Positions 24,001-30,000 of a stretch of 50,702 nucleotides of DNA are shown here, in pieces. Made by a program: the position numbers. Origin of the DNA: a virus; UHGV virus genome UHGV-0140686; one strand, given 5' to 3'. Position 1 is the stretch's first letter; each line of letters begins with the position of its first letter.

Positions 24001-27000
24001 TGCGTTGATGTTTTATCAACGTCGCGGTTCCCGGCATCGCCCAGGAATTTCCGTACTTGCTTATGTGCTTGTGCTGATTTACGCGAGCATTCCCTTCCAG
24101 TTTATCTTCGGTCTTTACGTACAGTCCCACTGGCTGGTGGTACTGGCAAACATCCTTATCTGCGCCGCCGTGCTGTGGGCACGGGGTAACGTGGCGCGCC
24201 TGGTCGATACACTGAGGCACTAATGAATCAATCACAATTTCAGCAGGCGGCTGGTATCAGCGCCGGCTTAGCTGCGCGCTGGTATCCGCATATCACTGCA
24301 GCAATGAAAGAATTCGGCATTACGGCGCCTGTCGACCAGGCGATGTTTATTGCTCAGGTCGGGCATGAAAGCGTCGGGTTTACCCAACTGGTGGAGAGTT
24401 TCAATTACAGCGTTACCGGGCTGGCGGGATTTGTGCGCGCCGGGCGACTGACGCAGGACCAGGCCAATTCCCTCGGACGCCGGCAGGGTGAGCCGTCACT
24501 ACCGCTTGCGCGCCAGCGGGCGATCGCCAACCTTGCCTACAACAAAAGGAATGGCAACAAAGGCCCTGGTGATGGCTGGCTATATCGTGGCCGTGGTCTT
24601 ATCCATATCACCGGACTGACGAATTACCGGGATTGCGGGACCGGGTTGAAGGTCGATCTGGTGGTCCAGCCTGAACTACTGGCGCAGGACGAATACGCGG
24701 CACGAAGTGCGGCCTGGTTTTATGCCAGTAAGGGCTGCCTGAAATATCCCGGTGACCTGGTCCGCGTCACCCTGATTATCAACGGCGGGCAGAACGGAGT
24801 TGATGATCGGCGTGCCCGTTTCCTGAAGGCAAAATCGGTATTGGTGGGGTAACTATGGGAATCGAAACTATTGCCGGGCTGGTGTTTGTCCTGCTGGGCG
24901 TTATCGCTAGCGCGTTCGGTATTGGTCATGCCCGCGGTACCAGTAAAGCCGAAGAAAAAGCCAAGCAGCAACGCACTGAAGAAAACGCCGCTGCTACTGT
25001 CGCCGCGGCAGAACGCCGGGCTGATGCAACGAAAGGGGCCAGCGATGTACAGCAGACTGTTAGCCATATGCCTGATGACGATGTTGATAGGGAGCTGCGC
25101 GAAAGATTTACCCGCCCCGGTGGTGGTTGATACCGCGTGCAGTTGGGTGCGGATCATCTACCTGACCGACCACGATATCGATGTGCTGGATAAGCAGACC
25201 AAGCGCGACATTCTGGCGCACAACAAATCAGTGCTGGCGAACTGCCCATAACCAACCGAAAAGGCTACGAAATGATTGCAACCATAGGAACCATTATCGT
25301 TTGGGCGCTCATTGTTGTGGGTGGCGCTGTAGGGTTGTTGTGCGCATTAATCGGGCTTATGTTCATCATCAACTTTCCCATGCGCTAACCCCACGAAGGG
25401 ATAACCCAACAGCTATCCCCACCCGAGGATACAGCCATGAAGAATTAAAGCGGATAGACCGCAGTCGAAAGGCAGAGCAGCAGTAATGATGCTGCCCCGA
25501 GTCGCGTAATGGCGAGCAGGTATAGCAGACCGTTGTGAGGGTAAATAAGGGAACATGCTCCGGTAAAGAAGCGCGAATGCCAGACGCGCACTAGTTATAA
25601 GCGGCGATGATGTGGCAGCTACTCAAGGGCATGAGCGTGGCCACTCCGGGAAGTGGCAAAGCATTGCAGGAGCCATTCACCAGGTGGCGGCCCTAATATA
25701 TTTTGTTAGAATAACCTCATAACTAATGTGAGGTGGATATGGATGCTAGTTATATAGCTTATGAAACGCTTGTGGCTAATCGCAATGCAGCTGAGTGGGC
25801 GTTTTGGTCAATGATTGCTGCATTTATTAGTGGCACTGCAAGCGTAGTCACTTTGATTTTTGCTTATAGAGCCCTGACAACCTGGCGAGAGCAAGAAAAA
25901 ACAAAAGTAAAAATGGAGTTTAGATTTGCGATCAAACAATTAAGAGTCGCCTTGTTAAATATGCCACTAAACCTTGACCGAGATGAACTTGAGGAAGAGA
26001 GGGAGCAGGTTATTGTGAGGTGGCTTTTTAAAGATGTCGATCTCATAAGTCAGCAGATAGATGCTGGAGAGCAGAATGTGCAGAGATTTGATAACCTTCT
26101 TAGCATCTTTGACGCCTGCCAATCGTCTTGGCTTGCTACTGAGCACTTATTTGATGGGACTCAACTTGCTAGAGACTGGATAATACTCGAAGACGACTTT
26201 GAACATTATATCAATGGAGAAGGGACTAAGGCACCATTAGTGCAGTTGCTTAATAAAATAACATCTTCACGATTTGTCTTTGATTCAAAATAATCACTGC
26301 CCTGCAATTTATTTAGATATTAAAAAGGCCACCCACAGGTGGTTTTTTTAATGGCACTTCAGAAACCATTCCGAATAGTGATTTTGATAATGCTCCCCAC
26401 ATCGCATAGAGGAAAGACAGACATGGCAGACATCACACTAGCAGAACAAATACGCCTGAACTTGCTTTCAATCCTGAACTACGATACAGCAGCAGCTGCT
26501 AAGGCTATTGCATTCGTACAGGACAGTCAGTTGAAATATCAGATTTTCATCCAGCAGTACAACCGGGTTGTAACCGAATCTGAAGTGGTTGCAAAGACCA
26601 TCAAAGCGATTCAGGAAGCCACCGAAGCGCTGGCGCTGTTTGATACAGCCTCAGAGCAGATTAGCTAGTAAAGCAGAATAGGCACTCTATGAGTGCCTAT
26701 GATAATATCAATTCTGTTTTATTATTAAAACTCTTGACTCTGTCATTGTTGTTCTGGAGTCAACGCTATATATCCTTTATCAATAAGTGATGATATTATT
26801 TCTTCGAAAACTTTTTTCCCCCGGTATTCGTTTTCGGTCTTGCAAATATAATCGCTTGAGAAAACATTTTTCACGATATAGCCGTCGTGCGTTATGAATA
26901 TTTTTAATACAGAGTGAAATGTATCATCTTCTCTAAAAAAGAAATGCATTTCTATACACGAAGCAACAATCGGTGGGAAGTCATAAAGCTTTAGAGACTC

Positions 27001-30000
27001 TTTGCATTCAAGTTTTAAATTGAAATGTGAGAGGTCGATGGTGAGGTTATTCTCTATAATAGAAGCCGATGCTGCTGTGCTTACTAAATCATTGTTGTTG
27101 ATATAAGATATTAATTTGTTTTTTAAGTTTAATGTTGAGCTTATCTCCGTGCAGCATTCATTTTTTATATTTGAAAATACTTTGTAAACATTTTCAATTT
27201 CCATAATTGTCCTTATTGCTGTACTTAGTTTTCATTAAGCGTCTTGGGGTAATGTGTCAGTTATACCAAAGACAAAAATCATGTTTCAATTAATATAAGA
27301 GGATAGCCTAAGGTGACTATTAAGAGTAAACTTAATCATATAACCTTTTTAAATTAAAGTTAGAAACATAAGAAGTAATTTTTATAAGAGGTAAGCGAAT
27401 TAATGTATTCCAATAAGATTAGCGAACCTCGTATTTACGGCAGCAAATGGGACCGTGAACGTCTTATCTTCCTTCGTGCGCACCCCTTGTGCGTCCTGTG
27501 CCAGGAGCAAGGCAGGGTGACAGCGGCAACGGTGGTTGACCACATCATCCCGCATAAACTGAAAGAAGCTCTTCGCTCTGGTGACAGTCAGGCAATAGCG
27601 AAGGCGCAAAAACTTTTCTGGAGCCGGAAGAACTGGCAAGGGCTGTGTAAGCAGCACCACGACTCAACGAAGCAGCGAATGGAGAAGCGTGGCACCGTGA
27701 TCGGCTGCGATGAAAACGGGATGCCACTGGACCCGGCTTCTCATTGGTTTAAGGGATAACCATTATCAATACACTTCAAAAGTGATTGTCATTTAAAATC
27801 ATTATCATTCGAATGATATCGACTCTCATCTGAGGGGGGAGGGGCGGGTCAAAAGTTCAGAACCTTGAACCTAAATGACCGCCGCCCATCCTTTTTGTAC
27901 AAAACCGCGAAATGAAAAGATTTTTTCTGGGAGGTTCCGATGGCAGGACGACGCCCGAAACCGACCCATCTCAAAGTGGTCTCCGGCAACCCGGGTAAAC
28001 GTAAACTCAACGATAAAGAACCGACTCCGGCGCGAGAAATTCCAAGCCCGCCGGCGCACCTGACCGACTGGGGAAAGGTTGCCTGGGGAAGGTTGACGGT
28101 TCTCCTTGACGGGATGGGGGTGCTAACGGTTGCCGACACCTTAGCCCTTGAACGGCTATGCGATATTTACGCTGATATCCTTCAGTTGCGCGACACCATC
28201 GCAGTAGAGGGAAGAACCTATACCGTCCAGACCGAGGGTGGTTTTCTTATCAAAGCTAACCCGGCCGTTTCGATGCTGGCCGATGCCGACCGCCGTTTTA
28301 AAAGTTACCTGGTTGAATTCGGTCTGACGCCAGCGGCAAGGACGAAGGTGAAAGTGAATGGCGAAGACCCCGAAGAGGACACGCTCGACAAGTTCTTCGG
28401 TTGATCCTGCAACCCAATATGCGATGGATGTAACCTCGGGAAAAGAACTGGCAGGGCCTGACATCCGTAACTCGTGCCAGCGCCATCTCAACGACCTGAA
28501 GTCATGTCACGCTCGTGGTCTGCACTGGGATGTTGAGGCGGCGCAACGCTCGATTGATTATTTTGCGAAAGTTCTGAAGCTCAATGGTGGCGATTTCGAA
28601 GGCAAGCCTTTCGTGTTGCTGCCATGGCAGTGCTTCATCGTCGGTTCGATTTATGGCTGGAAAAAAGCCAGCGGTTTTCGCCGGTTCCGAATGGCCTATG
28701 TGGAGTCCGGGAAGGGATCCGGCAAATCCCCCCTGTCTGCCGGGATAGGGCTTTACTGTCTAACGGCGGATAAAGAGCCTCGTGCTGAAGTGTATGCTGC
28801 GGCCACGAAAAAAGACCAGGCAATGGTTCTCTTCCGTGATGCGGTGGCGATGGTCGATCAGTCACCGGCTCTTTCCGCGCGCATTCATAAATCTGGTGGC
28901 GCCGGGAAAGAGTGGAACCTGGCTTTTCTTCAGGCAGGTTCCTTCTTTCGTCCAATCAGTTCTGATGATGGGCAGTCCGGCCCGCGACCACATTGCGCTC
29001 TTATTGATGAAGTTCACGAGCATAAAAGCAATCAGGTTGTTGAAATGATGCGTGCCGGTACCAAAGGCCGCCGGCAGGCGCTGATTTTCATGATCACAAA
29101 CAGTGGACACGATAAAACCAGCGTCTGCTATGACTATCACGAATACGGTCGAAAGGTTTCTGCCGGTTCGATAGATGATGATAGCTTTTTTGCCTTCATC
29201 TGTTCTCTGGATGAAGGGGACGATCCTTTCAAGGATGAGTCCTGCTGGAAGAAAGCTAACCCTTCGCTGGGTCACACCTTTGAAGAAAGCTATCTTCGTG
29301 AGCAGGTGACTCAGGCCCGCGGGATGCCATCGAAAGAGAGCATCGTCAGACGTCTTAACTTCTGTCAGTGGGTTGACGCGGCTAATCCGTGGATGAGCAG
29401 TGATGTCTGGATGGGTTGTGAGGAAAGCTTTGATCCAGATGAACTGGAAGGCGAGGAATGCTATGGCGGTCTGGACCTGTCCGGATCGCGTGATTTGACT
29501 GCACTGGCGTTGTTTTTTCCAAAACAACGTAAGTTGCTGGTGGAGTTCTGGACCCCGAAAGATACGTTGCTGGAACGGGCGAAAACGGACCGGGTACCTT
29601 ATGACGCCTGGGAGCGCGATGGTCACATCCACACCACACCTGGTAAAGCGGTGAAATACGGCTTTGTTGCCCAGCGCATTGCAGATCTGACTCAGAAGTT
29701 TGATATCAAGGCCATCGCCTTCGACCAGTATCGTATTAAATACCTTGAGCCGGAGCTAGAGGAGGCATCTGTTTCTGTTCCCTTAATTCCTCACGGGCAA
29801 GGGTATTACAAAGCGAAAGATTCCGGGCTGTGGATGCCTCACTCGATCGAGTTGTTCGAGGAGTTGCTCGATGACAGCGTCATTATCATCAGGACAAACC
29901 CTTGCCTTCGCTGGAATGCAGCGTCAGCAGTGACGGAGGCTGATCAGAAAGAAAACCGAATTTTTGCAAAGAAAAAGAGTACAGGACGCATCGACGGCAT

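Follow-up and report, generated by a model that had tools for sequence, protein, structure and literature searches.

An AT-rich antisense moron with an uncharacterised protein family at the lysis/packaging junction of a Klebsiella lambdoid prophage

In phage lambda, the bor gene lies at the lysis-packaging junction, between the lysis genes and cos, and is oriented opposite to the late operon. Morons were reportedly defined for the phages HK97 and HK022, by Juhala et al. in 2000 and by Cumby, Davidson and Maxwell in 2012. The lambda genes bor, lom and rexAB are expressed in the lysogenic state, and expression during lysogeny is characteristic of accessory loci that carry a promoter of their own and run antisense to lytic genes (PMC7067206). 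Here we describe a gene of the UHGV virus genome UHGV-0140686, a Klebsiella lambdoid, HK97-like prophage; the whole stretch of 50,702 nucleotides that was analysed is referred to below as the window. This gene is an ordinary moron in the bor position, and it carries an uncharacterised protein family. Specifically, we propose with moderate confidence that it forms a self-contained prophage cassette of ~0.7 kb at the lysis/packaging junction, antisense to the late operon, and that its role is most likely protection of the lysogen. The gene and its cassette comprise the following elements:

26743..27204, minus strand: open reading frame (ORF) of the moron, with an ATG start and a coding sequence of 153 aa
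26707..27423: inserted cassette of ~717 bp and 30.3% GC, delimited by the break in homology to empty-site relatives
27403..27423, plus strand: opening 7 codons (MYSNKIS) of the gene for the HNH endonuclease, inside the cassette, where they replace the backbone version

The placement of the moron is most similar to that of lambda bor, with which it shares the position between lysis and packaging genes, the orientation against the late operon, a promoter of its own and the character of a dispensable accessory gene. Bor itself differs in being an outer-membrane lipoprotein of ~97 aa with a signal peptide and a lipobox (Pfam Lambda_Bor). A Bor-like lipoprotein was rejected for the product of the moron, which has no Bor match and no signal peptide and whose predicted fold is unrelated to Bor. 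As in the HK97/HK022 morons and in antisense loci such as STMMW_20121 of the Salmonella prophage ST64B (PMC7067206), the gene is inserted between genes that are adjacent in relatives, deviates in base composition, has its own promoter and runs antisense to lytic genes. Unlike in these systems, its downstream hairpin comes from the phage backbone and not from the cassette. The protein family is also unrelated to any characterised moron product.

At 31.8% GC, against 50.8% for the whole window, the moron has the lowest GC content among the 148 ORFs that reach 80 aa in the six frames (the second-lowest being at 36.1%), which bears out the initial annotation of this gene as the most AT-rich coding segment. 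Its GC content corresponds to z = −3.8 among all 462-bp windows, and all such windows that are poorer in GC overlap the same locus. The gene was also correctly described as a minus-strand gene convergent with the genes upstream, which are the plus-strand genes at 25733..26293 (phrog_6169) and 26339..26668 (DUF2560, PF10834); it is divergent from the HNH endonuclease gene (27403..27759). The AT-rich leader of ~200 bp that had been noted 5' of the gene was recovered as well, with 27.8% GC over the 198 bp of 27205..27402.

The insertion was delimited by comparison with relatives that have an empty site. In phage ST147-VIM1phi7.2, the HNH gene starts only 55 bp after the DUF2560 gene. A blastn comparison with the loci L022 and L021, alongside a junction alignment, placed the end of homology to the window at 26706 and its resumption at 27424, and these are the limits for ST147-VIM1phi7.2. 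The cassette between these points is strongly depleted in GC (30.3%) relative to its flanks (41% and 53%), and a distinct composition is seen in all homologues: members of the family have 30-34% GC and are hosted in phages of 48-55% GC. Besides the moron, the cassette holds sequence upstream of the HNH start together with the first HNH codons. Residues 1-7 of the HNH protein were matched only by loci that bear the moron, and other loci match from residue 2-8 onward. We further surveyed the junction in 80 IMG/VR contigs with close HNH homologues. It was empty in ~37 of them, with 55-68 bp between DUF2560 and HNH, and occupied by the moron in 5, with a gap of 738-739 bp. Another 21 contigs contained other inserts of 180-1176 bp, mostly small plus-strand ORFs of 41-49% GC. 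Transposition was considered as the source of the cassette and rejected, no flanking repeats being found.

Several other cargos were seen at this junction or next to it. In phage ST13-OXA48phi12.4 (L021, 3240..4081), the junction is occupied by a plus-strand ORF of 88 aa; a minus-strand ORF of 118 aa annotated at the same junction overlaps the HNH start region and may be spurious; it was also seen in several contigs of IMG/VR. The DUF2560-HNH gap of L056 and L102 (locus ~3293..4001) contains a minus-strand ORF of 57 aa with the signal-peptide/lipobox-like sequence MKRIMLAVFVICGALSLSGC followed by a Gly-rich tail, which is a different antisense cargo and nearer to Bor in kind. In the window, the phrog_6169 protein (25733..26293) has a hydrophobic N-terminal segment. 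A relative of this protein with 34% identity was found inside the DUF2560-HNH junction of contig L111 (~1025..1552), and cargo therefore moves between two neighbouring hotspots. The adjacent hotspot, which extends from the lysis genes to DUF2560, carries Abi_alpha, Acb2/Tad1-hairpin and YfbU genes in relatives.

Pairwise dN/dS values of 0.08-0.50 were obtained among alleles that share 63-99% amino-acid identity, which argues that the protein is under purifying selection and that the gene is real. Alleles at 100, 88, 80 and 70% identity, all from Klebsiella (the named members being K. pneumoniae, K. quasipneumoniae, K. variicola and K. michiganensis), were retrieved from a database of 5.8 billion proteins. 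Only 8 representatives of the family were returned when 1.84 billion representatives were searched exhaustively with HMMER. All of these are 150-158 aa long, and this length is kept in homologues down to 22% identity. Homologues of 22-41% identity occur in prophages of Leclercia, Pseudescherichia and Kluyvera, the named distant members having 22-33% identity. Across 17 sequences, K72, F88, D107, I120, C121, G129 and L140 are invariant and N125 is nearly so, and the motif D-G-[YF]-I-V ... I-C-x-x-x-N-x-Y-x-G-K recurs in the family. No further members were gained with a wider profile built on 17 sequences (A4). Likewise, no family member was found by tblastn against 72,556 plasmids or in a scan of one genome per species, megablast/blastn gave no match in 5,426 E. 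coli genomes, and a literature search with the WP accessions of the family returned no papers. In the collections searched, the family is unannotated, narrowly distributed and restricted to Enterobacteriaceae prophages.

The conservation of the protein bears directly on the explanation that the locus is silent or selfish cargo, either H-NS-silenced or without useful expression, which hitch-hikes at a recombination-tolerant module junction. Such cargo would account for a cassette as extremely AT-rich as this one (30% GC) and for a junction that takes many unrelated inserts. It would not be expected to show purifying selection on the protein (dN/dS 0.08-0.50), to persist as a family to 22% identity with length and motifs kept, or to be as common in Klebsiella as a gene of which one single sequence variant is carried by 415 contigs. 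The promoter and the Shine-Dalgarno sequence are moreover conserved where other upstream sequence has diverged, and we regard this explanation as very improbable.

The conserved promoter became apparent from an alignment of the upstream regions of five Klebsiella allele groups (A3). In all Klebsiella alleles, the block CTTGGTATAA(C/T/G), also written TGGTATAA(C/T/G), is invariant at −64/−70 from the ATG and has the form of an extended −10, TGnTATAAN. Locus L009 keeps this block although the rest of its upstream sequence is unalignable. Comparable motifs are present in divergent members of the family: TGGTATATA lies at −58 in the Leclercia locus L033, which encodes a homologue of 22% identity, TGTTATATA (form TG-T-TATATA) lies at −49/−55 in L031, L035 and L119, and the related motif TTTTGGTATAGC occurs in L029. 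In the window, the following signals were assigned to the moron:

27289..27284, minus strand: −35-like hexamer TTGAAA (5/6 matches), read from the sequence, 18 nt upstream of the −10
27268..27260, minus strand: extended −10 TGG-TATAAC (TGGTATAAC), with TGG at 27268..27266 and TATAAC at 27265..27260, from the A3 footprint
near 27253, minus strand: predicted transcription start, which would give a 5' untranslated region of ~49 nt
27214..27210, minus strand: Shine-Dalgarno sequence AAGGA, the same in every Klebsiella allele and separated by 5 nt from the ATG at 27204
26700..26678: perfect 10-bp inverted repeat with a 3-nt loop and the tail UUCUGCUUUAC, terminator-like on the minus strand, 43 nt past the stop of the moron

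Phylogenetic footprinting supports the in silico assignment of a separate promoter to the moron, and with it the initial reading that the gene is probably expressed independently of the late operon. The initial annotation had linked this promoter to the leader of ~200 bp. The promoter itself stands and has gained a conserved extended −10 footprint, while its extent shrinks to a core at about 27260..27289; distant homologues have just ~70 bp of intergenic sequence on the upstream side, and it is not AT-rich. Transcription of the moron would thus start from a sigma-70 extended −10 promoter of its own, and a consensus-like Shine-Dalgarno sequence would drive translation. The transcript would probably end at the hairpin of 26700..26678. 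This GC-containing hairpin folds with −22.1 kcal/mol (z = −3.1 for the hairpin region), and the cassette appears to borrow it from the phage backbone as a terminator. The ends of short Logan contigs, examined in case these were assembled transcripts, disagree with the predicted transcript. On the other strand, the hairpin (AGGCAYTC-n3-GAGTGCCT; 26678..26706) is followed by T(G/A)TGATAAT, which resembles a plus-strand extended −10. In empty-site phages this pair is conserved directly upstream of the Shine-Dalgarno sequence of the HNH gene, and it may serve the packaging operon as an RNA element or internal promoter. A scan of 26300..28000 against Rfam gave no match.

With respect to the prophage as a whole, the moron sits antisense between the DUF2560 gene and the HNH-TerS-TerL genes, inside the Q-dependent late transcription unit. 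The landmarks of this setting are:

8803..9435, minus strand: CI-like repressor
18644..19420: Q antiterminator
23560..23955: holin
24223..24852: endolysin
24855 onward: ORF of 91 aa, a candidate spanin gene
27940..28404: TerS, P27 type
28358..30094: TerL
30101..31420: ORF of 439 aa, corresponding to the portal gene of related loci

Because it is antisense to the Q-antiterminated late operon, the moron is not expressible from that operon. In a repressed prophage no Q would be made and no late transcript would cross the gene, which would leave the cassette expressible. After induction, head-on late transcription would be predicted to damp its expression; both predictions draw on the analogy with lambda bor. 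By analogy with bor and with other antisense morons (PMC7067206), we infer that the gene is expressed in lysogens.

The placement of the gene is constant. It was found in the identical place and orientation in 20 of 20 Klebsiella loci examined; these loci differ from one another in their lysis genes and in the cargo that separates the lysis cassette from DUF2560. In more divergent phages the homologue is again found next to the lysis genes. In Leclercia, it separates the lysis cassette from a lambda-type DUF1441/GpA terminase; in Pseudescherichia, lysis genes from an HNH gene with a P27-type terminase; and in Kluyvera, the spanin gene from a Terminase_3 module. The same arrangement is present in the IMG/VR contigs L029-L032, one of which adjoins an Acb2/Tad1-hairpin gene. 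In every case the homologue is antisense to all its neighbours. A functional linkage to the terminase was rejected because the homologues lie beside three unrelated terminase types, and a toxin-antitoxin pair because the gene is always solitary.

This position also has a bearing on the idea that the product is an anti-defence or host-takeover protein that is expressed immediately on DNA entry, as with T7 ocr. Phages of the HK97 type have cos directly next to the HNH gene, which would put the moron ~0.6 kb from the right genome end. The right end of lambda enters the cell first, and a constitutive sigma-70 promoter at the entering end would permit expression ahead of the phage regulatory cascade. 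Consistent with this idea, in every locus the gene borders the packaging module on its lysis side, its product is acidic, and PMC3592412 describes HNH genes as adjoining cos and terminase genes. The adjacent hotspot carries the anti-defence gene Acb2/Tad1; genes of this type are co-oriented with the lytic operon, however, whereas the moron is antisense, and a pI of 5.1 is not DNA-mimic-like. The position of cos in this prophage is putative. Furthermore, the Kluyvera homologue resides in a phage with a Terminase_3 module, a type that suggests headful (pac) packaging, and a headful genome would have no fixed ends. We consider an entry-expressed protein distinctly unlikely.

The product of the moron is an acidic protein of 17.6 kDa (pI 5.1) in which no transmembrane segment, signal peptide or hydrophobic N-terminus was detected (max KD19 0.88), pointing to a soluble, cytoplasmic protein. 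An AlphaFold model based on an alignment of 11 sequences (pLDDT 86.9, pTM 0.81), which superseded a poor earlier model on 5 close sequences (pLDDT 61.7), predicts a long helix (residues 3-37), then six strands that form an antiparallel sheet (45-111), and a helix at the C-terminus (128-142). An N-terminal helix, an antiparallel sheet and a C-terminal helix are likewise features of the frataxin/CyaY fold; as regards membership of that family, there was no Pfam match in 11 members and no match of the family profile to PDB sequences. Below an E-value of 1e-3, the sole structure match in BFVD was the uncharacterised protein A0A873WDE3 of Burkholderia phage Mana (E 8e-5). It resembles the moron product in being phage-encoded and of similar size (151 aa), but has a TM-score of only 0.47 and an identity of 10%, and adds no functional information. 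Scans of the protein and 11 members against Pfam, PHROGs, NCBIfam and PADLOC gave no meaningful match, and the protein alone had no Pfam match at E ≤ 1. A type III secretion system (T3SS) class I chaperone or YbjN-like protein was considered and rejected, the combination of chaperone fold and T3SS/effector context not being found. The Gifsy defence protein GiPD474 is an ATPase and unrelated. No catalytic signature was recognised, and folds of this class are typically those of binding or adaptor modules.

A small, soluble, acidic alpha+beta product of this kind would most likely bind another macromolecule, presumably a protein. For the moron, the most probable role would be lysogenic conversion that protects the lysogen against superinfecting phages, as suggested by the antisense own-promoter arrangement and by the adjacent hotspot with its Abi_alpha and Acb2/Tad1 genes. 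This is the weakest step of the proposed mechanism and, taken alone, it is doubtful. We are more hesitant still about a bolder version, rating it as rather unlikely, in which the family would be a new single-protein, non-enzymatic anti-phage factor (for superinfection exclusion or abortive infection) with a frataxin-like sandwich fold, which, as an antisense cassette with its own promoter at the lysis/packaging junction, would be spreading through the lambdoid prophages of Enterobacteriaceae and be absent from every current defence catalogue.

A number of observations weigh against the lysogen-protection moron that we favour. With regard to function, nothing links the protein to defence: neither the protein nor the other members (11 family members scanned) had any match at E ≤ 1 in PADLOC-DB v2.0, the fold searches gave no informative match, and the gene has no partner gene. 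A tblastn search with four members as queries did not find the family in 50,697 deposited phage genomes, and no experimental phage model therefore carries it. An alternative is a lysogenic-conversion factor unrelated to phages, with a possible role in host physiology or regulation, or as an orphan immunity protein towards a bacteriocin or type VI secretion system effector. Such a factor would raise the fitness of the lysogen, as lambda bor and lom do; we consider it unlikely.

As for expression, the −35 element is poorly conserved among alleles, and it is probably dispensable since the promoter has an extended −10. A generic two-hexamer promoter scan gave 9 sites, a number not above that of shuffled sequence (5.1 ± 2.2), and missed the extended −10. 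The hairpin at 26678..26700 is part of the phage backbone, is present in empty-site phages and has a weak U-tail. Finally, AT-rich foreign DNA is typically silenced by H-NS in Enterobacteriaceae, the host in this case having ~57% GC, so that constitutive expression in lysogens is not assured.

The window contains further candidates for accessory insertions. A second gene antisense to the late operon (22731..23123, minus strand, 130 aa) lies just upstream of the holin genes. Its product matches PHROGs of unknown function, and these only weakly; the gene is present together with a 52-aa ORF in L003-L007, and it may be another moron. Two additional ORFs are low in GC and may also be accessory insertions: one of 94 aa at 36666..36950 (36.1% GC), which has no PHROG match and lies just 5' of a 1194-aa ORF (37011..40595), and one of 110 aa at 19978..20310 (38.7% GC), which matches phrog_13663 and lies 3' of Q. 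The tail-fibre region (45074..50681) has a mirror-image organisation, in which a 644-aa ORF (45074..47008) and a phrog_4390 gene (47008..47769) on the plus strand face a phrog_4390 gene (47817..48569) and a 700-aa phrog_4201 tail-fibre gene (48579..50681) on the minus strand. With this layout, the region looks like an invertible or alternative cassette for host range, comparable to the G segment of Mu.

Among the main sources of unexplained phage resistance are the accessory genes of prophages, and Klebsiella pneumoniae is a priority target of phage therapy. The cassette described here is common in Klebsiella prophages and carries no annotation in any library, and its architecture is typical of conversion genes that are expressed in lysogens. 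Should its product turn out to act in defence or fitness, it would bring a new, small protein family into the repertoire of such factors, and the DUF2560-HNH junction would be a cargo hotspot worth mining.

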